Assembly: GCA_046290225.1 (NCBI GenBank)
Contig: JBKAGE010000035.1
Span: 352,001-416,000 of the forward strand
Length of the DNA stretch: 64,000 nucleotides
Direction of reading: 5' to 3'
DNA from: Bradymonadia bacterium
GTDB lineage: Bacteria > Myxococcota_A > Bradymonadia > UBA7976 > UBA1532
The notes below the pieces were generated by a model. It searched no databases. It had not been told where the DNA came from and saw nothing but the letters and a program-made list of their open reading frames with translations. Made by a program: the position numbers and the translations under genes. Of the stretch, positions 6,845 to 26,086 are shown in pieces (position 1 is the first letter of the stretch; each line of letters begins with the position of its first letter).

Positions 6845-9361
6845 ATGAGGGGGAAGCTCATGTGTCGCGGTCATCTCAAGCGTTGGGGGCGTTTTTTGCC
6901 TGCAGCGCTCTGCTTGCTTTTGCCAAGCATCGCCCTGGGTGAAGACGCACCCAAACCCATCACCCAAGAGACCATTGATGGCCTGCAAGGGAACATGAAC
7001 CATGTGTGGACGATGGTGTCCGCAGCGCTGGTGTTCCTGATGCAGTGCGGGTTCCTGTTCATCGAAGCAGGGATGGTGCGGTCGAAGAACGCCATCAACG
7101 TGGCGCAGAAGAACATCGCCGACATGTTGCTGTCGGTGGTCATGTTCTGCCTCGTGGGCTTCATGTTCATGTTCGGCAGCAGCGCCGGCGGTCTCATCGG
7201 CATCGAGGGCAAACTCTTCGCTCTCGATGGCATGGATGACTGGGGCTTTACCTTCTTCGTGTTCCAGGCAGTGTTCTGCGGAACTGCAGCGACCATCGTG
7301 TCAGGTGCTGTGGCAGAGCGCATGAAGTTCGGTGGCTACCTGGTGGTCTCGGTGGTGGTCTCGGTGCTCATTTACCCGGTCTTCGGTCACTGGGCGTGGG
7401 GCAACCTGCTCGACAGCAACAACACGGCCTGGCTGGCTGACATCGGTTTCCTCGACTTCGCAGGCTCCACGGTGGTGCACAGCGTCGGTGGCTGGGTCGC
7501 CCTTGCCATGGTCGTCATCCTCGGCCCCCGCGTCGGTCGCTTCGACGAAGAGGGCAACCCCGTGCGCATTCACGGCCACAGCTCCGTCCTCGCCACCATG
7601 GGCGCACTCATCCTCTGGATCGGCTGGATCGGCTTCAATGGTGGCTCCACGACCACCGGTGACTCCAGCTTTGCCCCCATCGTGGCCAACACCCTCATCG
7701 CCGGCGCCTTTGGCGGCTCTGTATGCATGATGATCGGCCGATACCAGGACGGTCACTATCGGCCGGACCGGTCGATCAACGGTCTGCTCGGTGGCCTCGT
7801 GGGCATCACCGCTGGCTGTAATGCAGTGTCGATTCCCTCTTCGATGGTGATCGGTACTGTGGGTGGCCTGGTGGCGTACTACGGGGCTGAGCTGCTCGAG
7901 CGCAAGTTCAAGCTCGACGACGCTGTGGGTGCTGTGCCCGTACACGGTATGGCTGGTATGTGGGGCACCATCGCCGTGGGCATCTTCGCCCCCGCTGATC
8001 AGCTCGCAGCCGGCGGTCGCTTCGAGCAGATCGCTGTTCAGGCTGGTGGGGCTCTGTTGGCCTTCGTGTGGGCTTTCGGTCTCGGGTATGTGGTGTTCAA
8101 GGCCTTCGACGTCTTCGTGGAGCGGATGCGTGTGTCCACGGAGGACGAGCTCGCTGGTCTCAACCAGATCGAGCACGGGGCGACGCTGGGTACGGGTCAC
8201 CTGCTCAAGCGCATGACCGAACTCTCTTATGGTGAAGGCGACATCAGCATGCGCTTGTCGGAGGACAGCAACGACGAGGCCGGCGAGCTGGGCTTTGCCT
8301 TCAACCGCGTCATGGACAACATCGAGCACCTCGTCCGCACCGTGGCCACTGAAGGTCAGCTGCTGAGCATCTCCGCCGAGAAGATGTCTCGGGTCTCCCA
8401 GAGCCTGTCGGAGCAATCCGAAGCGGCGGTGAGCGAAGCGAGCCGTGCGAAGGGACGGGCGTCTTCAGCGAACGAGGCTTCAGGCCAGGCTGCAGGCTCG
8501 CTGGATTCGGCGAAGCAAAGCGCCACGTCGATCGCAGAGCGTTCGGGACACCTGGCGGGTGCGGTGCATCAGGCGACGAGTGGGGTGCAGACCATCGAGC
8601 ACGAGATTCACAGCATCCAGGACACCACCGCTCAGGTCAGGCGCGTCATCGAAGAGGCCCTCGACCAGAGCACCGCTGCCAAGACCAACGTCAATCAGCT
8701 CAGCTCTGCCATCGATTCCATCTCCGGCATCCTCACCATGATCGAGCAGGTCTCCAACAAGACCCGCATGCTCGCCCTCAACGCCACCATCGAGGCCGCA
8801 CGAGCCGGTGAGGCAGGCCGAGGCTTTGCCGTGGTGGCAGAGGAGGTCAAGGAGCTCGCTGATCAGACCGCCAAGGCCGTGGACGACATCCGCGGGAAGG
8901 TTTCGGGTGTGGTCGATGAGGCGAACCATACGGTGACCATCATCGAGGCCATCACCCACACCACCGAGCAGATGGGCTCCGCTGTGGCTCAGATCGCCGA
9001 CTCCGTGGAGGCCCAGAGCCAGTCTGCATCAACCATCGTCTCGCAGATCAACCAGGCCAACGACGAGACCAACGCCGTGGCCAGCCAGATCCGCACTGTG
9101 AGCACCGATGTCGCCCAGTCTTCTGAGAAAGCACTCTCTGCGGCCCACGACACCCTCAGCGTCATGAACGACATCGAGAGTGTGGAGAACGTGGCCCGCC
9201 AGAACCTCGAGCAGGCCCAGGAGGTCATGATGACCTCACAAGAAGTTGCTGAAGTGGCTCACCGCCTCACCCAGCTCATCGCACGCCTCACCGACGTGCA
9301 GAGCGTGTATCGCGAGGCTCAGCAAGTCATCAACATGGGCGGAACAACCGCCCATTTCTGA
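6845..9361 (+). CDS. Ammonium transporter (Amt) fused to HAMP and methyl-accepting chemotaxis signalling domains
   Basis: Amt motifs [47 protein letters not shown]-like GDISMRL...[14 protein letters not shown] hairpin [33 protein letters not shown]. Confidence 0.92.
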
Positions 9362-9480: not shown

Positions 9481-9933
9481 TCAAGTGCTCTGCCGCTGCA
9501 CGCGATTGCGTATGCGCCGTGCCAGCCCGCCGATCACCGAGACAGCCACAGCATCATAGCGGCCTTGGCGCATCACCCTGCCCTGGCGGCGGAGCGTGAT
9601 CACTCGCCCCAAGATTTGGTGGGCCTCGAACCAACCATCGATGGTCGGCAACGCGTCGCCTTTGACACACACGCGTCCGCCGGGCAGGGCGCAAATCACG
9701 CGGTGGACGATGCCCAGCTCACCGACGTCGAGCAGTACGACTTCACCTAACTTCGGGGGCGCGCTCAAGGGCGCGATGGTGACCTGATCGCCATGACGCA
9801 GATAGGGGCGCATCGAGGCGCCGAGGGCGGTAAAGGTAAAAGGCTGGCCGCGACTCAACGCCTCGCGGGCCATCTCGGCAGCAGCGGTCTGGAGGGCGGG
9901 ATCATCCCGAGTGCTGACAGGTGATCGAATCAC
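9481..9933 (-). CDS. S24/S26 family (signal peptidase-like) serine peptidase, putative RiPP leader peptidase
   Basis: GASMRP (catalytic Ser), GDQV, IVHRV, KGDA, ILGRV. GTG start overlaps the radical SAM stop (GTGA at 9930-9933). Confidence 0.8.
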   Translation of the reverse strand: MIRSPVSTRDDPALQTAAAEMAREALSRGQPFTFTALGASMRPYLRHGDQVTIAPLSAPPKLGEVVLLDVGELGIVHRVICALPGGRVCVKGDALPTIDGWFEAHQILGRVITLRRQGRVMRQGRYDAVAVSVIGGLARRIRNRVQRQST

Positions 9934-11171
9934 CGGGCCCGGGGCTCGCCGATCTGCACCAGGGAGACACCATCGTCGCCTCGAGGGCGCAGGCGATGGC
10001 CCGGGCGAGCCATGCCGTGTCGCCGAGCAGCCCACTGACGCTCGGCGAAGGTGGGCCGAGATGCGAAGAGCTCACCTTCGTCGCCGGGGGCCGGCACCGG
10101 CTCGTCGGTCTCGTTGAGGCGGTCCATGTAATCCATGGCAGCCATGGTCAGATGGGTACGCTCGCAGACATAGGCGCTGCGACGATCAGCCTGCTCGGTT
10201 TCGGCGTGGGAGATGCCCGGGCAGTAACCGCACTTGCCGTGGAATCCGCAGCCCTCGCAGTCCTGCAGATAGTTCGCCCGCTTCAGCTCCCGCTGCTTCT
10301 TCACCGTGGGGTGATGCCACCAGAGCTCGGCGAAGCTGTGCTCTCGCAGACCCCCGATGGGCTCCCGCCAGTTGATGCAGGGGTAGAGCTCGCCATCAGG
10401 GGAGATGTAGCCCGCGGTGTGGGCCGCCGAGCAGGTGTTCCCCGAGCTGGGCACGTCGGGCATCTCGTGGGCGGGCCTGATCTCGTCGCGACGACTCTCC
10501 ATGCCCTTCATCACCGCGAGGATACGCTCCGGGTGAGTGAGACCGATGCCCGTGAGGGCGAAGTCGGACTGATCGTCGGGCATGATGTGGCCGTCGATGA
10601 CCCACTCACAATCGTACGTTTTGGCGATGGCCTCGACGGTGTGCCAGTCGGTCCGGTTGTGCACCATGACCGGTGTCTTGAGCTGCACCTTCACCCCACG
10701 CTCTCTGAGGCGGCGGGCGGCGTCGATGGTCTTCTGATGACTGCCGGGAATCCGCGTCACCGCCTCGTGGGCTTCGGGGCCGCCGGAATACAGCGACATG
10801 GCCACGCACGACACCCCCATGTCGGCGAGATCATCGGCGAGGGCATCGTCGATGAAGTTGCCGTGGGTGATGATCTTCACGTCGAACTGACGATCCCGGG
10901 CGGCCCGCAGCACCTTGGCGGCGTCGGGCCTCAGGAAGAGATCACCCCCGCTGAACAACAAGAACATGCACCCGGCTTCGGCGAGCTGGTCGAGCACGTC
11001 GACGCACTCGTCATAGGTCAGCTCGTGCTTGCGCCGATCAGTGAGATAGCAGTGCACGCACTTGTGATCGCAGCGCCAGGTGATGTCCCAGTGGATGCGC
11101 ACGGGGATGTTCAGGTCATAGGCCTGCTTGAAGATATCTGGCGGTACGCCTTCAGCGCCGCAGGCAGCCAT
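9930..11171 (-). CDS. Radical SAM / SPASM domain peptide maturase
   Basis: CDHKCVHC (CxxxCxxC), FSGGD, SPASM Cys pattern CSAA...ISPDGELYPC...CEGCGFHGKCGYCPG...C; AAGGAGG RBS. Confidence 0.92.
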   Translation of the reverse strand: MAACGAEGVPPDIFKQAYDLNIPVRIHWDITWRCDHKCVHCYLTDRRKHELTYDECVDVLDQLAEAGCMFLLFSGGDLFLRPDAAKVLRAARDRQFDVKIITHGNFIDDALADDLADMGVSCVAMSLYSGGPEAHEAVTRIPGSHQKTIDAARRLRERGVKVQLKTPVMVHNRTDWHTVEAIAKTYDCEWVIDGHIMPDDQSDFALTGIGLTHPERILAVMKGMESRRDEIRPAHEMPDVPSSGNTCSAAHTAGYISPDGELYPCINWREPIGGLREHSFAELWWHHPTVKKQRELKRANYLQDCEGCGFHGKCGYCPGISHAETEQADRRSAYVCERTHLTMAAMDYMDRLNETDEPVPAPGDEGELFASRPTFAERQWAARRHGMARPGHRLRPRGDDGVSLVQIGEPRAR

Positions 11172-12085
11172 GGGCCCTCCTTGGGGAACTCCAGCCGTAT
11201 GGGGTCGACCCGCGAGACGAGATCACAGGCCAGCCCAAATGCAGCCCCCCGAGTTGCGGGGGCGTTGTCGTAGACTGTCACACAGCGCAACAGCCAGGCC
11301 ACAGCCTCGTCGTCGGCGAGGGGACCGAGGGCCACCTGGGTGGCCTTCACCGGCCGGGTCATCACCGCGATGGGCGCCCCTCTGGGGTTCAAAGGCAATG
11401 TGCGCCCCTGACTCCAGAAGGGTGTACCCCAGGCGATGTAGCCCGCCCCGTCTCCCCGTGGTCTCACCGCCACGATCTCGTCGGCGAGCACGTGATCGAA
11501 GCCCGCCTCTCGAGCGATGGTGCTTTTGCCCGTGCCCGAAGGCCCGGGGTTGAGCCACGCGTGGCCATCGACCACACCTGCTGATCCGTGAATCAGGCCG
11601 CCGCCTTCTCGAAGCAGCAGCGCGCTCAACACCAGCTGGACCACCGCCCAGATCTCACCCCGACTGCCATCCATCCAGGTCACCCCGGTGGTGCCGTCGG
11701 CGCTCAGCTCGAGGCGTACATCCTCTCGCCAGTAGCAAAACTGCGTGCCGTCTATGGAGTTGGAGTCGCCAGCAGCTGTTCGAGTCTCACCAAGTGTGTG
11801 ATTTGAGCTGTTTTTCTGGCTCAGAGCTTCACCCATGGGGACCGGCCAGCACTCGACGACGCGCACCTCCACACAACAGGTCAAGGGCACACAGTGCAGG
11901 GCTCCATGAGATGAATACGCCTGTGCACCCTCTCCGACAGCTTCGGCAAGACCGTTGCCTGACTCAACAAAACAATCGAGGGCCTCGGCACCGAGGGGGG
12001 TGCCGAAGAAGATGTCCGTGAGGCCTTCACCATAGAGGGTGAGAGCGACACCGGCGATGTGGAGGGTGATGGATGTGGGGGGCAA
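11111..12085 (-). CDS. HPr kinase-related P-loop protein
   Basis: LIHGSA...GPSGTGKST...LADE...WGTPF. Likely TTG start just after the precursor stop; start uncertain. Confidence 0.75.
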   Translation of the reverse strand: MPPTSITLHIAGVALTLYGEGLTDIFFGTPLGAEALDCFVESGNGLAEAVGEGAQAYSSHGALHCVPLTCCVEVRVVECWPVPMGEALSQKNSSNHTLGETRTAAGDSNSIDGTQFCYWREDVRLELSADGTTGVTWMDGSRGEIWAVVQLVLSALLLREGGGLIHGSAGVVDGHAWLNPGPSGTGKSTIAREAGFDHVLADEIVAVRPRGDGAGYIAWGTPFWSQGRTLPLNPRGAPIAVMTRPVKATQVALGPLADDEAVAWLLRCVTVYDNAPATRGAAFGLACDLVSRVDPIRLEFPKEGPWLPAALKAYRQISSSRPMT

Positions 12086-12086
12086 C

Positions 12087-12290
12087 TCAGGACTGCAGGT
12101 TGCAGCCAAAGGGGGGCGGGCCGGGGGTGATGTTGAGGGCGCCACACGACAGGGCCGCGCGCTCGAAGACTACGCTGGTGACGAAGCCAGGCTTCTCGTA
12201 GGCCCGACGGGTCTCGGGGGTGCCGAGATCATCGTCGTGCTGGATCTCGTGATCCTGTTCGAATTCGGGCTGACGCTGCTCGTCGCTCAT
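12087..12290 (-). CDS. Putative RiPP precursor peptide (67 aa)
   Basis: GAGGAG RBS; acidic N-terminus, RRAYEKP (YxxP RRE-binding-type motif), FERAALS, then C-terminal CGALNITPGPPPFGCNLQS; embedded among PqqD, rSAM and peptidase genes. Confidence 0.8.
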   Translation of the reverse strand: MSDEQRQPEFEQDHEIQHDDDLGTPETRRAYEKPGFVTSVVFERAALSCGALNITPGPPPFGCNLQS

Positions 12291-12314
12291 GTGTTCGCTC
12301 CTCTCAGGAAGACC

Positions 12315-15300
12315 TTAGTAGAAGATCACCACCCGTAGGGTACCACCGGGCTCTTTATATACGATGCCGAAGTCTGCGTAACCGGTGGCATCGCCGTCAA
12401 AGTTCCCCAGGCCAGCGACCCCGATCTTGTGTCGGGCGGGGCTCGACAGGGTGAAGTCGACGCCGCGAGGCGTCTCCACCGCGTCGGTCCCGAACATACC
12501 GCTGCCGTCGTTGAAGTACACCCACGCGTCGAGATCGGGGTTGTCGATGTAGTTGTTGTGGCTCACCACCAGGTCCACGAAGCCGTCGGCGTTGATGTCG
12601 CCGGCGAGGTCGAAGATGGCGCCGTAGTTCTGCACACCGCGGCCGAAGCAGTCGGTGCTGTTCTGATCCTCGTCCCAGACCGACAAGCGACGTGAGACGC
12701 GATCGCCGACGACGAAGTCACCGCCGCCGTTGGCGTCACCGGTCAGATCGGCCCCACCGACGATGGAGCTGCCGAAGCTGCTCTGCGCTGCAGGACAGGG
12801 ATTGGCGAGGGCGAACGTTGTGGTCTCTGCAACGTTGTAGGCGTAGTTCTCGGGCAGATCGTTGGCGCCGTAGAAGACGTACACCCCAGTCCAGTTGGTG
12901 GGGGAGTCGCCCACGCTCACGGCGACATCGTCGAGACCGTCGTTGTTGAGATCACCCACCGTCGAGGACGAGGCGCCCATGTTCTGAGCCCCCGTTACCG
13001 AGATACGGGTGATGCCGTTGCCTGCGTCGAAGGCGGTGGCGTCAATGGTGGCGGGCCACGCTCCACGGCCAGCGATGACGAAGGCCTCGTCACCGGCCCG
13101 ACCGTCGAAGGCGCTGGAGCCGCCGATGAGGATGTCGTTGTAGGTCACCCCAGCCACCGTGTCGGCGTTGAGCTGGTTGAAGTTGCCCGCAGCGCCCACC
13201 CAGGTGATGTAGCGGCCGGGCACGGTGATCACAGAGTCCACCGTGGCCAGCTCCACAGGATCCGCCGAGCCAAAGTACACACCCACCGTACCGCCGAAGC
13301 CCACGGCGAAGTCCACACCGGTGATGGCGAAGTCGTCGAGACCGTCACCATTGATGTCGCCGAGACCAGTGGTCTGCAGGCCGTACTGGATCACGGGTAC
13401 GGCGCCCACGGTGGCGACGTCGAGCTCCACCGTGGAGATGCCCGCAGGATCAGCGGCACCGAGGACGATGGCGGTCTGGCTGAACTCGAAGGCGAAGGAG
13501 CCGTCGTACTGCACAGCACCCACCAACGCATCACCCCGACCATCGCCGTTCACGTCGCCCACGCTGGTGAGCAACGAAGCGGTGTTCAGGAAGTTGTCGT
13601 TGTCCCAGGCGACGTCGTTGCGGGGCGTCAGCTCCACAACAGCCTGGTTCAAAGTGACGTCCACCTCGATATTGGCCAGGTCACCCATACGGCCCACGTC
13701 GTCCATGGCACGCACGGCCACCTGATGCACCCCGTTGAGGGGGAGCAGGGCGTCGAGGGTGATGCTCTCCGCAGCGCCCGCATCAGCGGTGGCGGCGAAG
13801 GTGCCCAGATCAGTGGCTACATCCCAGGCGCCCTCGTCGGCGATGGCGGCAGCGGCATAGCGCACGGCGTACTGAGACACGCGGTCACCACCGGCGCCGT
13901 CATCACCAGGGGCGGTGAAGTTCAGCTGCACCGTGGGACGGCGGGGGTGAGTGACGGCTGCGGCGAGATCCCCAATGGCCGCAGGGGCCTCGGGGTCGAT
14001 GTTCACGTTCCGCGTGGTGCAGGCCTCGTTGCTGGCGGCGTCGCTCACACAGACCCGCAGCGCCACAGCGCCTGCAGGCACGGTCACACCGGCGAAGGTC
14101 ACGTTGGAGGGGTTCGCAGCGTTCACGGCCACGGGGCCCGCAGTCTGAATGCCGTTCACCTCGAGGTTGGCGGTCCGGTTGCTGCCATCGGTGGCCTCGT
14201 TCACCTGAGCCACGATGGTGATCTGCTGACCGGGGGTGCCGGCATCGTCGTCAGTGAGCACAGCGGCGCCGTCGGCGGGGCTGGTGACGCTCACCTGAGG
14301 GGCCTCGATGTCCACCAAGATGGACTGACCCAGCGACAGGGTGTCGTTGCCGTCGAGGCTGGCCCGCAGCTGCAGGATCGAATCCCCCGCAGGCAGCGCC
14401 ACGTCGGCGAAGCTCACGAAGCCGCCGTTCACAGCCACAGGGCCAGCGATGACCTGGCCATCCGCGAGCAGGTTTACGTCGGCGTTGAGGCAGTTGGGAT
14501 CAAAGAGGTCCACGGCACCCTCGACGGTGCGCACCAGGGTGTTGCCCTGCACATTGCCGTCTGCGGGGCCGAGGATGGCCGGCGCGCCGACGATGCCCTG
14601 GATCTGGCTGAAGCAGCCGTCGATCTCCACCTGTACGTTCACCGGCGTCGAGGCCCCAGGGTTACCGCAGGCGTCTTCGACGCGTGCCACGAGGTCGAGG
14701 CTGCCCGGGGGCAGGGTGAAGGTGGTGTTGATGGCGCCGTTGAGACCTGCAGGCACATCGAGCTGGGCCGGGGTGGTGGTGATCTGCTGCTCACCGTTGA
14801 ACACCCGGATGATCTGCCCCGCCTCGATGGCGTTGCGATCGGCGAAGTCGAGCGAAGCAGCCACCTGGAAGCCGTCGGCGGCGTTGCCGTTCGCGTCGTC
14901 GTCCGCGGTGAAGCTGCTCTGGTCAGCAGGGCTGGCGATGAGCGGCTCCGGCGCCTGCGTGTCGACCTCGAAGGGGATGGCGTTCACGGTGGCGGCGTTG
15001 CCACAATCATCGGCCACGGTGACCTCGACGTTGTAGACGCCATCGGCCACGGTGAAGTTCGGGAAGGTCATCAGACCACCACCGGACTGAGCGTTGATGG
15101 CGTTGCCGCCGTCGATGGTCAACGTGCCGTCGAGGGTCTCGCCAGCCTCACCACCAGGGGTCACCTGCAGCGCGTACTGGAAGGCGTCCTCTGCATCGCC
15201 ATCGGCAGCAGCGTTGAGGCAGCTGTTCGCCGCGAGGTTCACCACAGCGGGGGTGGGCACCACGGTGTTGATGCGCACCGCCTGATCGACGAGCTCGGGG

Positions 15301-18300
15301 GTGCCGAGGGCCGGCAGCAGGTTGCCGGCCTCGTCTGCGCCCGTGACGTAGAGCGTGTACTGACCGGGATCGAGCTCCACAGGAATGCTCACCGAGCCGT
15401 TGGACACCGTACCGCTGCCGAGCAGCGCCTCGGCCCCAGCCTGGCGTACGCGCACCGCACGGCCGTCTTCCATGCCGTCCACCGCCACAGTGACCGAGAA
15501 CTGGGCTCGATCCCCTGCAGAGGCGGCGTTGGTCCGCTCGCCGCGGTTCACACAGGCATCGGCGTTGGCATCTTGATCGATGGTGATGGTCTCCACCGTC
15601 GGCGCGCTGCAGTCTGCCACCACCGTGATGGGATCAGAGACCACCCGCTGACCGAAGACCCCCACCACGGTGAGGGTGTGGGTGCCGTTCCCCAGGTTGA
15701 GGGGGCACTCGAAGACCTCGGCAGAGTTGCCCTGAATCGCGCAGGCACCGTTGAGGGCCGACGACTGACCGTCGCAGGCAGCAGGACCGTCGCCCTGAGC
15801 GAAGTTGGTGCACACGTAGAATTCGGCATCAGCGCCAAGGCCACGGGTCTGACCGAGCAGGTTCAGCTGGCAACCCTCGACCTCGGGCTGAGCGTCCTCG
15901 TTCACCAGGACCGTAGAGCCGTCGCCGGGCGCGTTCACCACGATGGCAGCGCCGGGATCGACCACGAAGTCCACCGGGGTCTGGGTCTGGTTGCCACAGG
16001 TGTCGGAGACCGTAGCGGTGAAGCTGAGATCGCCGAGGGGCATGGTGTAGCGGTCGAGAGAGACCTGGCTGCACTCGCCAGCGCCCACCACCCGGGTCAG
16101 GGGCTCGTCACCCACGAGGGCATCAGGGTTGCTGGTGAAGGCGATGGTCTGACCCGCGGCGCCACAGACGTTCACGCGGGGCGTCACCTGGATACCGGCG
16201 GCATCAGGCACGTCGCGGAGGTCTTCGTCGTCGAAGTCGTTGAGGGTCTGACCAGGCGTAGGCTTGAGGAAGCCCACGAGGGGGGCCACCCGATCCACCT
16301 GAACCGCCGCCTGATCGTTCACGCTCTGGCCCGCAGCGTCGGCCACCGAAGCGACCATCGTGCAGTTGGCCTCGTCGGGCAGCGACAGGGGCTGGAAGTC
16401 GATGAAGCCCAGGTTGTCGACGGTGCCCGTCACCGAGATCGGCTCGCCACCATCACAGGTGGCCTCGAGCGTGGCCACCTGACCAGTATCGACGCGCTCG
16501 GTGATGGCGGTCACCGCGAACTGGAAGCCGGGCTCGGCGCTGGCGTCGGCTACCTGGCCGTTCACGCAGTCACCAAAGGCAGGCAGCTCGATGCTCGGGG
16601 GCACGAGGCGAATCGCCACAGTGATTTGCGGCCCTGCAGAGGTGCCGTCGTCGAGGCGGCCCTGCATGTTGAAGGTGTACTCCGACTCGGCGTCGGGCGG
16701 CACCGTCACCGTCACCGGGAACGACACGTTGCCGTCAGCGTCGACAGCGCGAGCGGGCAACACAGTCTCCTGCTCACCCTCGGTGACGATGAGCTCCACC
16801 CGAGCACCCTCGGGCAGGTTGGAGTCGATGTTGGCCGTAAGCTGGAAGCCTTCGACCTCCGGGTTCAAGTCTGCACCGAGGGCGAGGCTGCTGCCATCGG
16901 CGGGATCGACGATCTGAATACGAGGCGTACCGCACACCGCGGTCACCGTGGTCTCGACCGTCGTCTCGTTGCCCGCGCAGTCCTGAGCCCGCATCGAGAA
17001 GGTGTTCTCACCATCGAGCAAGGTCTCGCTCATGGTGGTGGCCACCCCATCGACGACGGCGGCGCAGCGCTCGGCGGCGCCGTTGAGGCGATAGCACACC
17101 TCGGCGACGTTGGGATCGACCACCGCCAACTCGAAGCCGGTCTGGATGCAGTCGGAGAGATCGCCATTGTCATCGTCACCGATGAGCAGGACCGAGCCAG
17201 GTGCCGGACTCTGCAGGCTCACCTCGGGATCAGTCGTATCCACGGTGAAGGCGATGGGCTCGACAGGATCGATGGGCACAGCGTTGCCACCGATGATGGT
17301 GCCGGCCACAGCCACCGTGTAGTCACCCTCGGGCAACACATCAGTGCCCTCGTCGACGCCGAGGCGGATCGACCAGGCCTCGTTGCCGCCGGCGATCAGA
17401 TCGAGGGTCTCGCTGTCACCGCCACCGGCAGGGGTGAAGGTGGCGGTGAAGGCCGCCTGATTCTCGGCGAGGTTCTGACCGCTGCCGCCCACGAAGACCT
17501 GCCCGTCTGCAAAGCACTGGCTCGCGTTGGGGCTGGTGACTTGGAACGAAGGCGTGTCGAGGACCACGAAGTAATCCTGAGGCACCTCCTGGGTGCCCGC
17601 AGGGTTCGGCGAAGCATCGGCGGTGGCGCGGCAACCGAGGCTGCCAGCGTCGGCGCCGCGGAAGGTGGCCACCACGTTGGCGCCGCCATCAACCAGATCA
17701 GAGCGACGGATGCGATCACCCGGCAAGGTGAAGCGGCTGCTGTAGTTCTGGTTGGGGCGACGACATTCGATGTAGATGTCGTAATCGACCTCAGCGGGCC
17801 GATCGTCCACCACGGTGATGGCCATGGGCACCTGGATGCCCTCATCCTCGGCGGCATCACCAGGGCGAGCATCATTCGCGGTCGTGAAGACCGAGCCACC
17901 TGCAGGGCTCACCAGCCGGATGTCGGGCTGAGTGGAGTCGAAGCAGACCTCGTACTCCACCGAGGTGTTGTTGCCGCAGTCGTCTGCAGCGGTGAGGGTC
18001 AGGGTGCGGCCGCACACATAACCCGCCACCTCCACAGGGATGCTGAAGGCGCCCTCGGCACCCACAGTAAAGTCACCATTGCGGAAGCTGGGCAACGCAG
18101 GCTCGAAGGCCGCGGTGATGTTGGCACCCTCAGGCAGCCCTTCCACGGTGCCTGTGAAGGTCACCCGCATACCGCCTTCGGGCAGCGCCTCACCGTCAGC
18201 GACGGCGAGCACGTTCTCTCGGAGGGGGCTGAGCTGGTCAGAGTTGATGACCGGGGCGCTGGCATCGACATTGTAGGTGATCTCGGCGGCTTCACCGGCG

Positions 18301-19343
18301 AGGCCCGACTGCGTGCTGCCCTGGGCCGAGACCGTGTTGGCCCCCTCGTTCAGGGTGATGAGGGCCGAAGCCGTGCCATCGACGACGTCGATGCCGGGCT
18401 GAGCCTCACCATTCACCATGAAGACCACCCGGCCACAGGTGCTCGAAGCCTGCACGTTCACCTGTACCCCGTCGATGTCGGGATCAGCATCGGCGGTGGC
18501 GTCGAAGTCACAGACCCCCTCAGTGGGCTCGGGGCTCAGGGTCACCGCACATGCGGTGACGTCTACGGTGACCGAGGCCTCGGCGATGACGCGCTCACCC
18601 TCCACAGTCTCTGCAGAGGCGATGAGGGCCACAGCGGTCTCGGCATCACCGGTGATCGGCAGGGCCACATTCTCAAAGGTGGCGTTGCCGTCAGCCAGCT
18701 CAGCGGTCCCTGCAGGGGCCCCGGCGATGGTCAGCTCCACCGTACCTGCAGGGAGATTCTCCGCAGCGACGGTGATGTTGGTCTGCAGACCGTTGTCGAG
18801 GGTGCCATCGAGATCGTCAGCGGCGGTGAACACCGTCTGATCTGCGGGGTTGGCGAAGGCCAGAGTCGGCGTGGGATTCGCCGGCACACATGCTGGATCC
18901 TCAGCATCAAAGCTGGTGTTTACGCTGACTGTAGCCGTGCTCACGACCGCGTCATCGCGCACGAGCTCCGCCACAAGGTTCACACCATCCTGCACCGGCA
19001 GGGGGAATCCTCCGAAGAGCACCCGGCCCGATGCGGGCACGGGCTGCGTCACCGGCTCGGCGTCGCCCTCGGAGATGCTCAACCGCAGCTGCAGGCCCTC
19101 GTTGGAGGCCCCTGAAAGGCGCACCAGCAGCGACACGTTGTATTCGATCGTGTCCTGGGTCTCGAGGTTCTGGTCGTCGGCGCAGGTGATGGCCTGACCA
19201 TTGGTCTCGGGGGTGACGAACTGCGCTTGGAGGCCGTTGCCTCCACTGCTGCTGCCCCCACCGTCATCACAGGCGCCGAGGCCCGCTGTCGCCGCCGCCA
19301 TCCATGCGAGCGGCTGCCAGTATCGTGACTGGAATCTCTTCAT
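12315..19343 (-). CDS. Giant surface lipoprotein (2342 aa): tandem Cys-containing Ig-like repeats, Fn3-like segment, C-terminal FG-GAP/integrin-like repeats
   Basis: Lipobox GLGAC-DD; repeated DxCGN/DxAGN and DxDx3-4GxQ motifs; GDVNGDGRGD, GDINGDGLDD, GDLNNDGLDD, GDINADGFVD; GGAGG RBS. Confidence 0.88.
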   Translation of the reverse strand: MKRFQSRYWQPLAWMAAATAGLGACDDGGGSSSGGNGLQAQFVTPETNGQAITCADDQNLETQDTIEYNVSLLVRLSGASNEGLQLRLSISEGDAEPVTQPVPASGRVLFGGFPLPVQDGVNLVAELVRDDAVVSTATVSVNTSFDAEDPACVPANPTPTLAFANPADQTVFTAADDLDGTLDNGLQTNITVAAENLPAGTVELTIAGAPAGTAELADGNATFENVALPITGDAETAVALIASAETVEGERVIAEASVTVDVTACAVTLSPEPTEGVCDFDATADADPDIDGVQVNVQASSTCGRVVFMVNGEAQPGIDVVDGTASALITLNEGANTVSAQGSTQSGLAGEAAEITYNVDASAPVINSDQLSPLRENVLAVADGEALPEGGMRVTFTGTVEGLPEGANITAAFEPALPSFRNGDFTVGAEGAFSIPVEVAGYVCGRTLTLTAADDCGNNTSVEYEVCFDSTQPDIRLVSPAGGSVFTTANDARPGDAAEDEGIQVPMAITVVDDRPAEVDYDIYIECRRPNQNYSSRFTLPGDRIRRSDLVDGGANVVATFRGADAGSLGCRATADASPNPAGTQEVPQDYFVVLDTPSFQVTSPNASQCFADGQVFVGGSGQNLAENQAAFTATFTPAGGGDSETLDLIAGGNEAWSIRLGVDEGTDVLPEGDYTVAVAGTIIGGNAVPIDPVEPIAFTVDTTDPEVSLQSPAPGSVLLIGDDDNGDLSDCIQTGFELAVVDPNVAEVCYRLNGAAERCAAVVDGVATTMSETLLDGENTFSMRAQDCAGNETTVETTVTAVCGTPRIQIVDPADGSSLALGADLNPEVEGFQLTANIDSNLPEGARVELIVTEGEQETVLPARAVDADGNVSFPVTVTVPPDAESEYTFNMQGRLDDGTSAGPQITVAIRLVPPSIELPAFGDCVNGQVADASAEPGFQFAVTAITERVDTGQVATLEATCDGGEPISVTGTVDNLGFIDFQPLSLPDEANCTMVASVADAAGQSVNDQAAVQVDRVAPLVGFLKPTPGQTLNDFDDEDLRDVPDAAGIQVTPRVNVCGAAGQTIAFTSNPDALVGDEPLTRVVGAGECSQVSLDRYTMPLGDLSFTATVSDTCGNQTQTPVDFVVDPGAAIVVNAPGDGSTVLVNEDAQPEVEGCQLNLLGQTRGLGADAEFYVCTNFAQGDGPAACDGQSSALNGACAIQGNSAEVFECPLNLGNGTHTLTVVGVFGQRVVSDPITVVADCSAPTVETITIDQDANADACVNRGERTNAASAGDRAQFSVTVAVDGMEDGRAVRVRQAGAEALLGSGTVSNGSVSIPVELDPGQYTLYVTGADEAGNLLPALGTPELVDQAVRINTVVPTPAVVNLAANSCLNAAADGDAEDAFQYALQVTPGGEAGETLDGTLTIDGGNAINAQSGGGLMTFPNFTVADGVYNVEVTVADDCGNAATVNAIPFEVDTQAPEPLIASPADQSSFTADDDANGNAADGFQVAASLDFADRNAIEAGQIIRVFNGEQQITTTPAQLDVPAGLNGAINTTFTLPPGSLDLVARVEDACGNPGASTPVNVQVEIDGCFSQIQGIVGAPAILGPADGNVQGNTLVRTVEGAVDLFDPNCLNADVNLLADGQVIAGPVAVNGGFVSFADVALPAGDSILQLRASLDGNDTLSLGQSILVDIEAPQVSVTSPADGAAVLTDDDAGTPGQQITIVAQVNEATDGSNRTANLEVNGIQTAGPVAVNAANPSNVTFAGVTVPAGAVALRVCVSDAASNEACTTRNVNIDPEAPAAIGDLAAAVTHPRRPTVQLNFTAPGDDGAGGDRVSQYAVRYAAAAIADEGAWDVATDLGTFAATADAGAAESITLDALLPLNGVHQVAVRAMDDVGRMGDLANIEVDVTLNQAVVELTPRNDVAWDNDNFLNTASLLTSVGDVNGDGRGDALVGAVQYDGSFAFEFSQTAIVLGAADPAGISTVELDVATVGAVPVIQYGLQTTGLGDINGDGLDDFAITGVDFAVGFGGTVGVYFGSADPVELATVDSVITVPGRYITWVGAAGNFNQLNADTVAGVTYNDILIGGSSAFDGRAGDEAFVIAGRGAWPATIDATAFDAGNGITRISVTGAQNMGASSSTVGDLNNDGLDDVAVSVGDSPTNWTGVYVFYGANDLPENYAYNVAETTTFALANPCPAAQSSFGSSIVGGADLTGDANGGGDFVVGDRVSRRLSVWDEDQNSTDCFGRGVQNYGAIFDLAGDINADGFVDLVVSHNNYIDNPDLDAWVYFNDGSGMFGTDAVETPRGVDFTLSSPARHKIGVAGLGNFDGDATGYADFGIVYKEPGGTLRVVIFY

Positions 19344-19553: not shown

Positions 19554-19841
19554 TCACTGAAAGTCGATGAAGCGACGTGTCTGCAGTTCTAAGAGAAAAT
19601 CTTCCACATCCTTGCGTGCAGTTTGCTGATCAATGGCAAACTCTTTCACAACCAGCTCGATGATTTCGCGCACGGTGTTCTTTTTATCTGTAATCAAATT
19701 CCAGACAAAGGTGCCGACACCATTGAGCCGATGGATCGAGTCATCGCTGGCATCGAGCAAAATCGCGCTGCCGGCCATGACTCGAGAGACCGAGGTCTTC
19801 GAAGGAATGGGAACGGCGTTGTGCTGAGGCATGGTCGTCAT
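19554..19841 (-). CDS. PqqD family / RiPP recognition element (RRE) protein
   Basis: 95 aa; ILLD...HRLNGVGTFVWNLI...TVREII..V..EFAID..TARKDVEDFL.EL. Confidence 0.85.
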   Translation of the reverse strand: MTTMPQHNAVPIPSKTSVSRVMAGSAILLDASDDSIHRLNGVGTFVWNLITDKKNTVREIIELVVKEFAIDQQTARKDVEDFLLELQTRRFIDFQ

Positions 19842-19996: not shown

Positions 19997-20989
19997 TCAG
20001 CGCCAGCGGCGGCGCCGACGCATCAGGGGGAAGGACAAGAAGACACAGGCCCAGGGGATCCACCGCACGGCCCGCTTGATCCACGGGGAGCGCTTCTTGC
20101 GTCGGCCGGTGGCCGCTTCGGCCTCGGGCACGCACCCGCCGCTGCTGTCGTCATCCCAGCTGTCGTCGTCATCTTCCCAATCATCGCCCTCACAGCCGGC
20201 GCTGTCGTCTGATCCGCTGTCGCTCCAGCTGTCGTCGTCATCTTCCCAGTCGTCGCTGTCGCACCCACCGCCGCTGTCATCGTCGCCCCAGTCGTAGCTG
20301 CCACTGTCCATGGCATCACTGTCGTCATCGTCGTCGTCCCAGCCGTCGTCATCGTCCCAGTCGCTGCTGTCACACCCACCGCTGTCTTCACTCGGAGGCG
20401 GCTCGTACTCGTCTATCCACTCGTCGCTGTCGTCATCGTCATCCCAGTCGCTGCCATCGCAGCCGCCGCTGTCGTCGACCGCCACCACGACTCGACCACC
20501 TGATCGATCCTCAGAGGGTGGGGCGGGTCCTCGCTCCAAGCGCGCAGGTGGATGCAAGAGTCCAGTGAGGTTGATGAACTGCCAGCTGGTCCCGTTGAAG
20601 ATCTCCAGGCTGAGTTCGATGGTGGCGGGGGTGTACTTGTGAAACAGGGTGAGGCTGCTGCCCTGAGCCATCTGAGGATCTTCGAAGGCCCCATCACCGC
20701 TCTCGCGGAAGTCCACCTGAGAGGGCTCAAGCTCCACGGTGCCCTGCTCGAGACGCTCTGCAGGTACGGTCAGGGTGATGTTCACGTCGATATCAGGCTC
20801 TCTCTGATATCTGACGCTCACTGTTCGCAATGTGCCGTATGTATGTGTCTTGACGAAGGCCTGGCTGTGGCCATCTCGACGATGACCTTCGATCTCGGTG
20901 GCCCACACCACATCTGCCGAGCCATCACCGGTCCATGCGACACAAAACGGCAAACAGAGCAGCAGAAGCAAGGTGTGAGCGCGGTGCAT
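19997..20989 (-). CDS. Secreted or membrane-anchored protein with Asp/Trp-rich (S)GGC repeats and a C-terminal hydrophobic segment plus poly-Arg tail
   Basis: GGAGG RBS before MHRAHTLLLLL; five G(G/A)C-type motifs among D-rich tracts; ends WIPWACVFLSFPLMRRRRRWR. Confidence 0.7.
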   Translation of the reverse strand: MHRAHTLLLLLCLPFCVAWTGDGSADVVWATEIEGHRRDGHSQAFVKTHTYGTLRTVSVRYQREPDIDVNITLTVPAERLEQGTVELEPSQVDFRESGDGAFEDPQMAQGSSLTLFHKYTPATIELSLEIFNGTSWQFINLTGLLHPPARLERGPAPPSEDRSGGRVVVAVDDSGGCDGSDWDDDDDSDEWIDEYEPPPSEDSGGCDSSDWDDDDGWDDDDDDSDAMDSGSYDWGDDDSGGGCDSDDWEDDDDSWSDSGSDDSAGCEGDDWEDDDDSWDDDSSGGCVPEAEAATGRRKKRSPWIKRAVRWIPWACVFLSFPLMRRRRRWR

Positions 20990-21062
20990 GTGGGCCTCCG
21001 ATGAATGTGGGCAACATCGGCGCGTCAGAGCGAAGTTGCCGTGGTGTTGCATCGGAGCATCT

Positions 21063-22786: not shown

Positions 22787-22834
22787 CTCCATGCCTCCGC
22801 GACGCAGTCATGGGCTTTTCGAGATGCCATCCCA

Positions 22835-22849
22835 TGGCATGCGCTTTGC
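22835..22849 (+). promoter_or_regulatory. Candidate sigma-54 promoter of the DUF1592-DUF1552 operon
   Basis: TGGCATGCGCTTTGC: TGGCA, GG-N10-GC spacing and TTGC, about 38 bp before ATG 22887. Confidence 0.6.
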
Positions 22850-22886
22850 CATTTCAGTCACCCGACACCATCTGCGGGAGATTGAC

Positions 22887-24638
22887 ATGGCAAAGACACC
22901 GCTGAGGCCTCTACTCATCGCCATCGTTCTGAACACCACCTTTGTAGGGTGTGATGCAGGTGAAGGCTCGCTCTCATCGGGCGGTATGCACGCTGATCCA
23001 ACAGGACCTGGGCCAGGGTCCGACACGGACCTGCCCCCAGACACACCCGACCCACCTGATCCCGAAGAGCGCCCAGAGCCCGGCGATGACACAGGCACAC
23101 CCCAAACGTGCGCTGAGGGCATCTGCGCCGTGGCTGCCGATATGCGGCGGCTCACCGGAGTTCAAATTCGAAACAGCGTGCACGACCTGTTCTATGGCCA
23201 GATTCACACTGAAGCGCCGCTCCCTGCGCCGGGCGTGAGCGTCACAGGCTACAGCGGCGAAGCCAACGCCAACGCCGTGAACGACGCCGCCACCGAGCAG
23301 CTACTCCATCTCGCCGAAGAGGTGGCGCTGCAGGTGGCCGAGCGCACTGGAGTTCTGCTTGAGGGCTGTGACGGCCCAGGGCGAGACGACTTCGACTGCG
23401 CGTTGCAGTTCATCGGCCACTACGGCCGCCGGGCGTGGCGTCGCCCCCTCACCGATGACGAGTGGTCCGTCGTGCTCCAGGTCTACCAGGCCGGTGAAGA
23501 GGCCGATCTCCCCTTCGAGGAGCGGATCGCCCTCATGACCGAGGTGCTGCTGCAGGCGCCGCAGTTCCTCTACCAGATCGAGATCGGAGAGCCTGTCGAC
23601 GATCAGCCCCAGCTGCGTCGCCTGACCGACTTCGAACTCGCCTCTCGCATGGCCTATCTGCTCTGGGACACCTTGCCCGACGAGGCCTTGCTCAGCGCTG
23701 CGGAAGACGGGCAGCTGCGCACTCGCACGCAGATCGAGGCTCAAGCCCGGCGCATGCTCGATGATGCCAGGGCCCACGGCGCTGCCCTGCGATTCTTCCG
23801 TGAATGGATGCAGCTCGGCGGCAGCCACCTGCACGACAAAGATTGGGCGCTCGCCGGGTTCGATCCCAGCCTCGCCGACGCAATGGAGGCAGGCCTCGAC
23901 CAGTATCTGCTGCACACCATCTTCGACACCGACGGCACCCTCGAGGATCTGCTCTCGAGCACGACAGGCTTCATCGACGAGCAGCTCGCCGACTTCTACG
24001 ACGTGCCGTTCTCCGGAGAGCCTGTCGATCTGGGCCCTGAGCGCGCCGGGCTCCTCACTCGGCCGGCATTTCTGGCCGAAAAGGCCAGCCCCACAGAGAG
24101 CTCTCCGATCCATCGAGGAGTCTTCGTCATCGAGCGCATGCTCTGTGGCGATTTGGGATCTCCCCCCGACGACGCGCTGGAGCGATTCCAGGCCCTCGAG
24201 CGGGGGGCCAACCCCCGAGCGCAGTCGGAGATCCTCCGCGCAGTGCCCGAGTGTAACGGGTGCCATGCCCGCATCGACTCCGCTGGCCTGGGCTTCGAGG
24301 CGTACGGCCCCCTCGGTGAGCTGCGCGAGGTGTACCGCGACGGCACCCTCATCGACGCCTCCAGCGAGATCTGGGAAGGCAGCGTGCGTGGATCCTTCGA
24401 GGATCTCGGCGAGATGCAGCGCTTCCTGGCAGATCAACCCGAAGTCCTGGACTGCCTGACCCGGCAGTGGTTCCAGTCCATGTTCGGCCGACACGTGCAT
24501 GATTTCACACGCGAAGATCGCCGAGCCATCGCCCACCTGCAGGGCCAGGCACGCCAGAGCGGAGGCCAGATTAGAGCGCTCATGCTCAACCTCGTGACCT
24601 CCGACGCGTTCCGCTACCGCCACATCGAGGAGAACTGA
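22887..24638 (+). CDS. DUF1592/DUF1588/DUF1595-type exported protein with a CxxCH motif
   Basis: RRLT..QIRNSV.DL, RAWRRPLT, LQAPQFLY, ELASRMAYLLWDTLPD, SPIHRG, CNGCHARID..GLGFE.Y. Confidence 0.85.
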   Translation: MAKTPLRPLLIAIVLNTTFVGCDAGEGSLSSGGMHADPTGPGPGSDTDLPPDTPDPPDPEERPEPGDDTGTPQTCAEGICAVAADMRRLTGVQIRNSVHDLFYGQIHTEAPLPAPGVSVTGYSGEANANAVNDAATEQLLHLAEEVALQVAERTGVLLEGCDGPGRDDFDCALQFIGHYGRRAWRRPLTDDEWSVVLQVYQAGEEADLPFEERIALMTEVLLQAPQFLYQIEIGEPVDDQPQLRRLTDFELASRMAYLLWDTLPDEALLSAAEDGQLRTRTQIEAQARRMLDDARAHGAALRFFREWMQLGGSHLHDKDWALAGFDPSLADAMEAGLDQYLLHTIFDTDGTLEDLLSSTTGFIDEQLADFYDVPFSGEPVDLGPERAGLLTRPAFLAEKASPTESSPIHRGVFVIERMLCGDLGSPPDDALERFQALERGANPRAQSEILRAVPECNGCHARIDSAGLGFEAYGPLGELREVYRDGTLIDASSEIWEGSVRGSFEDLGEMQRFLADQPEVLDCLTRQWFQSMFGRHVHDFTREDRRAIAHLQGQARQSGGQIRALMLNLVTSDAFRYRHIEEN

Positions 24639-24640
24639 AG

Positions 24641-26086
24641 ATGATGTTGAATCGTCGCGCTTTCTTGAGAGGTGTGGGCGGCGCCGCCCTCACTGTACCC
24701 ATGATGGGCCTGCGCCAGCACGCTCGTGCTCAAACGGCCGGTGGGCCCCGACGTCTGATCATCATGGTGCACCCCCAGGGCACCCTCCACGACGCCTGGA
24801 CCCCGAGCGGCGAGGGCCGCGGCTTCGAACTCTCACAGATTCTGCAGCCTCTGGCGCCGCACCGGGATCGACTGCTGGTGCTCTCGCAGATCGACAACGT
24901 GGTGCGCCGGGAGCAGCGCCAGGGCAATGGCCACAATCCACCAGGGCGCACCCTGCTCACGGCCTTCCCCTTCGCGGGAAGCATGGACAATGGTCGCGTG
25001 CGGCCCGAGCACGAGCAGCCCCCAAACGGTGACGCGTATGGCCCCTCGATCGATCACGTGATCGCACAGCGCATCAGCGCCGACACCCGATTTCAGTCGC
25101 TGCACCTCGGCATCGGTGGAGACGAGCTCGGGGAATACACGATGTTCTGGGAAGGCCGAGAGGGCCAGGCGGTCGCTGCGGGGTGCGAGGGTGACCCGGT
25201 GTCACTGTTTCAGAGGCTGGTGCAGGCCGCGCCGGCCCCTGAGCGAGGCCCGATGACCCGCGCCGACCGCCTCACCGCCCAGCGCGGCAGCGTGCTCGAA
25301 GCCGTCCGTGGCAACTTCAACCTGCTCCAGAGCCGGGCAGGGGCGGCAGACCGGCGCCGCCTCGAAGAACACGCCACCCGCATCCGCAACCTGGAGCGCC
25401 GTCTGCGAGCGCCGATGTCTGCTGCGGCGTGCACGATCCCTGGCGGGCACACGCTGTCACCGGGTTATCGACCCTGGAACGCCGACTTCGACAACGAATC
25501 TGCAGAAGCCCACATCGAAAACCTGATCTTCGCGATGTCGTGCGATCTGACTCGGGTGGGCACGTTGCAGTTCACGCGCTACCACGGCCCTCAGTTCCCC
25601 TTCATCGATGATTTGCCGGTCCGCTTCAACGGCATGGCAGGTGATGATGACGACGACTACCGCGGTGAGAGTGGCCTGTGGGGCACCTGGCACCAGATGG
25701 TGCACCTGGGTCGGGAAACGCCCAGCGCCAGGGCGGCCATGGTGATGGTATTCCAGTGGTACATGGCCCAGCTCAACCACCTGCTCGACCGGCTGGCCAA
25801 CACGCCAGAGCCCACAGGTGATGGCTCGATGCTCGACCACACGCTGGTGCTGGCGCTGAGCGAGCTGGGCCACGGCGGATGGCACTCTACGCGCCACCTG
25901 CCGGTCATCCTCGCAGGCAACGCTGGCGCAGGCGTACAGATGGGACGCCACTTGAGCCTGCCCGATCGAACCACAGGCGATCTCTACACCACGCTGTTGC
26001 AGACCTTCGGGGGCAACGAGACCCACTTCGGCTTGCAACGTGGCTTCGAAGGCGATCGCCTGGTTATGGGGGCGCTGCCACTCTGA
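24641..26086 (+). CDS. DUF1552 family protein with Tat signal
   Basis: NRRAFLRGVG twin-Arg; SIDHVIA, CDLTRV, SMLDHTLV, LPVILAG; usual partner of DUF1592 genes. Confidence 0.85.
   Translation: MMLNRRAFLRGVGGAALTVPMMGLRQHARAQTAGGPRRLIIMVHPQGTLHDAWTPSGEGRGFELSQILQPLAPHRDRLLVLSQIDNVVRREQRQGNGHNPPGRTLLTAFPFAGSMDNGRVRPEHEQPPNGDAYGPSIDHVIAQRISADTRFQSLHLGIGGDELGEYTMFWEGREGQAVAAGCEGDPVSLFQRLVQAAPAPERGPMTRADRLTAQRGSVLEAVRGNFNLLQSRAGAADRRRLEEHATRIRNLERRLRAPMSAAACTIPGGHTLSPGYRPWNADFDNESAEAHIENLIFAMSCDLTRVGTLQFTRYHGPQFPFIDDLPVRFNGMAGDDDDDYRGESGLWGTWHQMVHLGRETPSARAAMVMVFQWYMAQLNHLLDRLANTPEPTGDGSMLDHTLVLALSELGHGGWHSTRHLPVILAGNAGAGVQMGRHLSLPDRTTGDLYTTLLQTFGGNETHFGLQRGFEGDRLVMGALPL

Follow-up and report, generated by a model that had tools for sequence, protein, structure and literature searches.

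We identified a 67-residue peptide gene on the minus strand of the window (the whole stretch of 64,000 nucleotides of Bradymonadia DNA analysed here), and this open reading frame is a real gene. Judging from the sequences of the genes encoded with it, we favour on balance the reading that the peptide is a precursor to be processed by a co-encoded RRE, an HprK-like kinase, a radical-SAM enzyme and an S26 peptidase, the likely product being 19 to 23 residues long, with a predicted thioether cross-link and predicted serine phosphorylation.

The peptide gene and its operon

The gene starts with ATG, and its ribosome-binding site, GAGAGGAG, stands 7 nt away, just past the stop codon of a giant upstream gene. 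The ORF with a good ribosome-binding site proposed in the first-pass annotation was thereby confirmed on the minus strand at 12087-12290, and Y31-E-K-P34, A-A-L-S-C49, C63 and the terminal S67 were all found as described there. The plus strand of the same segment encodes a different protein. A six-frame scan of the 8.58-Mb genome with a loose motif gave 12 strings, among which the peptide ORF was the only clean, stop-free match, and a search of the genome with a profile of homologues detected the peptide once (E 2.9e-23). For the leader block of 22 codons in 28 orthologues (leaving out two peptides of the order that have one residue more ahead of the Cys, as well as five peptides from other orders), mean pN was 0.258 against 0.652 for pS, and pN was lower than pS in 366 of 378 orthologue pairs, which are not independent of each other. 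No family in Pfam or NCBIfam names the peptide, either as a single sequence or as 20 aligned homologues, only single weak and unrelated matches being returned. The earlier remark that gene callers could easily miss this ORF was overstated: it had been called, an identical protein (P0002) being already in the protein collection, and the peptide is also in the ESM Atlas, where hypothetical clusters only were found, the near ones labelled Acidobacteriota by that source alone.

The operon consists of six genes, all on the minus strand, in the order RRE, 2,342-aa Ig/FG-GAP lipoprotein, peptide, HprK-like kinase, radical-SAM/SPASM enzyme and S26 peptidase, of which the last five abut or overlap. Its features are as follows, with counts referring to genomes or peptides of the order.

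19554..19841, minus strand: stand-alone RRE (PqqD family), 95 aa, first operon gene; PF05402 at 61.7 bits against a cut-off of 23.4; 31 of 31 genomes
12315..19343, minus strand: giant predicted lipoprotein, 2,342 aa; 25 of 31 genomes
12298..12305, minus strand: ribosome-binding site GAGAGGAG, 7 nt 5′ of the ATG; read from the sequence
12087..12290, minus strand: precursor peptide gene, 67 aa; ORF, homologues, profile search and selection test
12159..12200, minus strand: leader motif Y31-x-x-P34-x-F36...F42-E43-R44, composed of YxxP (RRE-binding) and the FE[RT] box; 30 of 30 peptides
12090..12158, minus strand: predicted core A45-S67, 23 aa, if cleaved after FER; prediction and conservation
12090..12146, minus strand: alternative predicted core C49-S67, 19 aa, if cleaved after ALS; prediction and conservation
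11111..12085, minus strand: HprK/PEPCK-fold kinase-like protein with H166, GxSGxGKST and D202-E203, putative TTG start at 12085; profile and fold; 30 of 31 genomes
9930..11171, minus strand: radical-SAM/SPASM enzyme of 413 aa with CxxxCxxC and seven invariant SPASM Cys, lacking a fused RRE; 30 of 31 genomes, single copy
9481..9933, minus strand: S26 signal-peptidase homologue of archaeal type, about 150 aa, with invariant Ser/His/Asp, its GTG start overlapping the radical-SAM stop; 27 of 31 genomes

The RRE gave PDB matches to TbiB1 and LppB (9X8Z). The giant protein carries an N-terminal lipobox-like LGAC, Ig-like repeats and C-terminal FG-GAP repeats, for which an integrin-alpha-like propeller is predicted. 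Both profile comparison and fold comparison match the kinase-like P-loop protein to PEPCK and HPr kinases: its predicted model (pLDDT 82.5) aligned with PEPCK at Z 12.4 (rmsd 5.4, 237 aligned) and with HprK at Z 9.7 (rmsd 4.1, 127 aligned), and the His and the Walker A Gly, Lys and Thr are invariant in 30 of 30 sequences. The Ser, the His and two Asp of the S26 peptidase are kept in 29 of 29. All 35 radical-SAM sequences keep CxxxCxxC and the seven SPASM Cys (10 Cys), the latter in the spacing C247-x12-G-x4-C265...C305-x2-C-x5-C-x2-C317...C336 with a last spacing of Cx2C, not Cx3C, and with no eighth conserved Cys. This enzyme passes no NCBIfam cut-off; the best model, NirJ2 (a haem d1 enzyme, not a thioether maturase), reached 123 of 500 bits, AhbD was also among the best models, MftC and PqqE scored 93.8 and 76.7 bits against cut-offs of 265 and 381, and the AlbA and StsB models stayed far below cut-off. 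None of five ABC_membrane genes lies on the cassette contig, and no exporter is linked; neither a sigma-70 promoter nor an informative terminator was detected at the cassette.

On the downstream side, an 838-aa protein that joins an ammonium transporter to HAMP and methyl-accepting chemotaxis domains (window 6845-9361, plus strand) converges on the cassette. Upstream of the RRE gene is a 351-aa protein without family match (19997-21052, minus strand), which carries Asp-rich repeats GGC-D-x-x-DWDDDD and a hydrophobic/basic C-terminal tail, and a DUF1592/1588/1595/1585/1587 protein (22791-26086, plus strand) is followed by DUF1552. A second PqqD-like RRE gene heads an unrelated cluster (G000:C36:439765-446109, L025), downstream of two large secreted-looking proteins; the motif scan found no YxxP precursor at that cluster.

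Conservation of the peptide and its neighbours

All 30 peptides of the order carry YxxP-x7-FER, two to four Cys and C-x3-S at or next to the end; 28 end in Ser and the other two in SG, 28 have small residues at -3 and -1 before the first Cys, and 25 have a Pro-rich loop with two or more Pro. Core residues apart from Cys and Ser vary widely. The logo predicted in the first-pass annotation, Y.KP....F...ALSC, proved essentially right among the collected homologues; of the PGPPPF turn proposed with it, the Pro-rich loop was recovered but the exact motif is not conserved. Searching 50%-identity representatives gave 143 matches, which include FE[RT] in 124, two or more Cys in 134, small residues at -3/-1 in 137, terminal Thr in 5 and terminal Ser in 130, the last count being biased upward because profile searches favour seed-like peptides. 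The last Cys stands four from the end in only 34 of these 143 wider relatives, the C-x3-S spacing being one that holds within the order. As to variants, the five peptides from other orders have a WxxP leader and C, CP, CPG or SG as their C-terminus; among 20 other-family peptides, four have neither Ser/Thr in last place nor Ser next to last and finish instead with L, L, Y and C, beside intact kinases; and two peptides of family f4 (L095:8169-8414 and L097:7160-7426) have lost the first Cys and kept the second, with kinase, radical-SAM and S26 genes intact beside them.

In the census of 31 genomes of this uncultured order, for which 17 of the 30 peptides had seeded the profile, the peptide, the radical-SAM enzyme and the kinase were each found in 30, the RRE in 31, the S26 peptidase in 27 and the giant in 25, and both peptide and radical-SAM enzyme are single-copy. 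The absence of three of the genes from one genome (G013) is due to a contig break within its giant gene, and the S26 gene was not found in three genomes of at least 90% completeness that keep the peptide. The peptide adjoins the radical-SAM gene in 17 of 22 radical-SAM loci, the other five being three split operons and two contig ends. Family f2 (three genomes) has the operon in pieces, RRE with giant, peptide with kinase, and radical-SAM alone, with all five genes kept and S26 found in one of the three. Among 113 genomes of the class, the peptide was detected in 35 and the radical-SAM enzyme in 41, both being absent from families f3 (0 of 43) and f8 (0 of 17); four of the six radical-SAM genomes beyond the peptide set had the peptide on inspection, and two f4 radical-SAM loci showed no peptide within the locus DNA examined. 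The closest loci come from Bradymonadia/Myxococcota MAGs, and a sample of the phylum contained the peptide in at least 67 of 401 genomes, scoring being limited to 16 candidates per genome. The cassette lies beside etfA in 16 loci and beside RNase E/G in 15 loci and in the window; etfA is on another contig in the source genome. The class showed a single case of a duplicated cassette: at L062 (G086:C291), a short contig carries two peptide-kinase-radical-SAM units that converge.

The giant gene stands directly 5′ of the peptide in 19 of 30 loci of the order, two more being cut by contig ends, and in 17 of 20 other-family loci, with three further loci outside this set; these 20 are the best-scoring of 46 and, being kin, are not independent, and the loci examined are all from Myxococcota. 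In the 19 and 17 loci, about 50-400 nt separate the end of the large gene from the leader motif downstream. Two gene orders were observed, RRE-giant-peptide-kinase-rSAM-S26 and kinase-RRE-rSAM-giant-peptide-S26. FG-GAP repeats build integrin-alpha propellers, and repeats of this type were present in 13 of 13 large giants scanned; the 811-aa neighbour of L081 is EGF-like. No giant was detected in six genomes in which the RRE stands directly before the peptide, five of them re-searched with the giant's C-terminus. These six form one clade (support 100/99), which implies a single loss with the peptide conserved, and the peptide is therefore not strictly dependent on the giant. Complex prediction with the C-terminal 440 residues of the giant and peptide residues 28-67 gave a score of 0.01, a value that weighs neither for nor against an association.

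Three further observations concern surface proteins. The signal peptide of the giant contains the string YWQP; homologous N-termini, compared by eye, lack it, and it was rejected. A 647-aa predicted lipoprotein at G000:C40:31916-33859 (L026:9917-11860) is 44% identical to the C-terminal 560 residues of the giant and lies without a cassette. P0175, a 768-aa secreted-looking protein, ends in a full precursor sequence, likely because a frameshift has fused the peptide to the surface-protein gene upstream of it; this hints that the adjacency of peptide and surface protein reaches beyond Myxococcota.

Predicted maturation and role of the peptide

The early reading of the peptide as a RiPP precursor with an RRE-binding YxxP leader was borne out by the occurrence of YxxP in 30 of 30 peptides, by the RRE gene at the head of the operon and by 11 natural RRE-precursor fusions among 29 longer matches; in two others of the 29 the precursor is fused to S26, possibly as an artefact of a frameshift. 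In the structure of LppB, N33, V35, D70 and F74 hold the leader Tyr and Pro (PMC13381572). The cassette RRE keeps the equivalents of these four residues, N40 and D78 (LppB N33 and D70) being kept in 26 of 26 and 25 of 26 sequences, respectively; the sole exception at D78 serves a Trp leader, which fits the rule given in the LPP paper (PMC13381572) in this one case (n=1). An AlphaFold model of an RRE-precursor fusion, run without alignment, had a pLDDT of 42, too low to be of use. In the proposed order of events, the RRE would very probably bind the leader via Y31, P34 and F36.

The radical-SAM enzyme may then well join the sulfur of a core Cys to a carbon of a nearby residue. With seven SPASM Cys, one auxiliary iron would be free; in CteB the open Aux I site is bound by a substrate Cys, and a non-Cys ligand could fill such an open site, as in PqqE (PMC6231123). 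C63 and the residue four on, S67, form the most conserved candidate cross-link pair within the order. A disulfide loop between the two Cys would also fit the absence of a conserved acceptor residue, the free loop length and the number of core Cys, which is at least two in 30 of 30 and in 134 of 143 peptides; the radical-SAM enzyme would then catalyse epimerisation, form a C-C cross-link or decarboxylate the terminal residue, its best models including the decarboxylases NirJ2/AhbD and MftC. We consider this quite unlikely: all the enzymes are predicted to be cytoplasmic, the seven-Cys SPASM domain has no eighth conserved Cys, and the one-Cys precursors of f4 cannot make an internal disulfide. 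Besides the thioether formation that we prefer, the kinase probably phosphorylates the terminal Ser67, once or several times, in the manner of PadeK and PsmK, which phosphorylate a C-terminal Ser (PMC6993621). Thr and Ser had been suggested as kinase substrates; conservation points to the terminal Ser (28 of 30; 130 of 143) and not to T55, which is not conserved. S67, if it is the thioether acceptor, may not also be the kinase site.

In the proposed last step, the RRE would rather likely present the leader to the S26 peptidase for cleavage. LppS requires its RRE and cuts after F-E-T, with FE[T] as P3-P1 (PMC13381572), and FER lies here four residues N-terminal of the ALS|C position. The FER box is at a fixed distance from the Tyr, while the Tyr-to-Cys distance varies and P1 of ALS|C is sometimes E, K, D or N; in distant relatives FE[RT] decays and AL-x-C stays, which counts against a cut after FER. 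By analogy with LppS, we give a cut after FER an even chance, and a cut after ALS is a plausible but more tentative choice. Signal peptidases cut where small residues stand at -3 and -1. The AALS|C cleavage first proposed fits this rule (28 of 30; 137 of 143), but the FER site of LppS type is as likely. The same ALSC had been compared with a lipobox, whose consensus is [LVI][ASTVI][GAS]C after a hydrophobic region. The Cys is near-invariant after small residues, and one peptide reads LGAC; however, the strict consensus is matched by 0 of 30 and 1 of 143 peptides, Leu is at -2 instead of -3, there is no hydrophobic segment, and the best 19-residue hydropathy, 1.26, falls over the charged leader, so that a tiny lipoprotein has a negligible chance.

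As to the role of the product, housekeeping at the cell envelope, tied to the giant lipoprotein, is likely, rather than action as an antibiotic. PQQ and mycofactocin are small cofactors derived from precursor peptides, and the peptide might likewise be raw material for a small intracellular cofactor made from its C-terminal residues, given its single-copy, order-wide occurrence in a stable position beside etfA (16 loci) or RNase E/G (15 loci and the window), the MftC and PqqE scores (93.8 and 76.7 bits) and the lack of a linked exporter. These scores are, however, far below cut-off (265 and 381), the core varies apart from Cys and Ser, the neighbour that stays constant from family to family is a surface protein and not an oxidoreductase, and etfA is here on another contig; we regard a cofactor as very unlikely. 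The matured peptide could also be a subunit, plug or ligand of the FG-GAP head of the giant, a role compatible with the proposed chemistry. The 5′ adjacency of the giant in 19 of 30 and 17 of 20 loci and in two gene orders, the presence of FG-GAP repeats in each of the 13 large giants that were scanned, and the precedent of QhpC, which after radical-SAM cross-linking becomes an amine dehydrogenase subunit (PMC7876137), argue for such a role, but the six giant-less genomes of one clade keep the peptide, the giant stays with the RRE and away from the peptide in f2, no exporter is linked, and the 20 other-family loci are kin and the best of 46. We hold this association to be unlikely, and the same applies to its boldest form, an undescribed RiPP class with a housekeeping function at the myxobacterial cell surface, in which a radical-SAM-cross-linked, phosphoserine-tipped mini-peptide would act on the integrin-alpha-like head of the giant as plug, activator or key, its maturation thereby controlling adhesion or the recognition of kin or prey in many lineages of Myxococcota.

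Relation to known pathways and meaning

The LPP system of Bacillota (LppA/B/K/S/D/N; PMC13381572) shares with the cassette a YxxP leader with an FE[T/R] box, a stand-alone RRE, an HprK-like kinase and an archaeal-type SpI peptidase with Ser/His/Asp, the catalytic residues being intact here. Beyond these shared parts, the cassette has a radical-SAM/SPASM enzyme and a two-Cys core; its leader is two residues shorter between YxxP and FE and departs from the LPP consensus YxxPxVLxHQxIxFETxxS, reading YxxP-x7-FER-xx-L-[SA]-C with Leu at +3 after FER in 28 of 30 peptides. Position 3 of the LPP core is Ser, whereas the cassette conserves a C-terminal Ser; the cassette has a linked giant lipoprotein and no linked MsbA-like exporter or NTP-transferase; and LPPs are patchy (80 of 9,173 Bacilli genomes; PMC13381572), in contrast to the order-wide single copy found here. 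The main text of PMC13381572 makes no mention of radical SAM. In six of its supplements, Radical_SAM occurs a single time, as one column of a matrix, and Myxococcota account for four rows, of which the two read belong to SSN clusters outside the study of that paper.

NTP_transf_5 was considered as a partner in trans and rejected, as it is present in 100 of 113 genomes of the class, including 39 of 43 and 17 of 17 in cassette-less families, and in 0 of 3 of f2. The gene, which is on a different contig from the cassette (G000:C46:36594-37715, L064), lies antisense between wza and an epimerase/wzc block in a polysaccharide-export locus, as in 10 of 10 relatives (L085-L094), and may have its own role in polysaccharide export.

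The lasso peptides paeninodin and pseudomycoidin (PMC6993621) are alike in the [YW]xxP leader, the discrete RRE, the HprK-like kinase and the terminal Ser, but their lasso cyclase and B2 cysteine protease are replaced here by the radical-SAM enzyme and the S26 peptidase, neither a macrolactam cyclase nor a B2 cysteine protease being among the six operon genes. Ranthipeptides and sactipeptides (CteB, SkfB; PMC6231123) share the Cys core, RRE dependence and a seven-Cys SPASM domain; the cassette differs in its separate RRE protein, in its kinase and S26 peptidase, and in a thioether that is only predicted. QhpC, the gamma subunit of quinohemoprotein amine dehydrogenase (PMC7876137), is likewise a small radical-SAM-modified, leader-trimmed peptide among larger exported proteins, but the cassette has no ABC exporter, haem subunit or CTQ-forming Trp, and its partner would be an Ig/FG-GAP lipoprotein, the binding being hypothetical. 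SynChlorMet (TIGR04248-04251) and GeoRSP (TIGR04302/04303) also combine a PqqD-like protein with radical-SAM/SPASM, SynChlorMet together with the HprK-like ScmC, whose model is touched by 27 of 30 kinases. The scores were below cut-off for ScmC, ScmD, ScmE and ScmF (17.6 of 125, 28.7 of 100, 75.6 of 400 and 54.2 of 400 bits), with one radical-SAM gene instead of two, and for TIGR04302 and TIGR04303 (31.1 of 100 and 85.1 of 400 bits). Membership in LPP, lasso, SynChlorMet and GeoRSP fails on the features tested.

The pathway thus appears, from gene content, to be the LPP machinery with a radical-SAM enzyme added and the linked exporter missing, and might be called an LPP-like radical-SAM RiPP; no description of such a pathway was found in the literature searched, a search that most subscription journals lie outside. 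The peptide, with its core of 19-23 residues, provides an unannotated substrate for a large set of orphan radical-SAM, HprK-like and S26 genes, and the leader/RRE/SpI logic of LPPs, shown so far only in Bacillota, would be extended to a pathway that uses radical chemistry. That a single copy of the peptide is retained throughout the order, even where the operon is broken up, points to a core cellular job and contrasts with LPPs and paeninodins, whose reported spread is patchy. The role of LPPs is stated to be unknown in PMC13381572, and the recurrent adjacency of the giant FG-GAP lipoprotein offers a testable lead on the function of such phosphorylated peptides.
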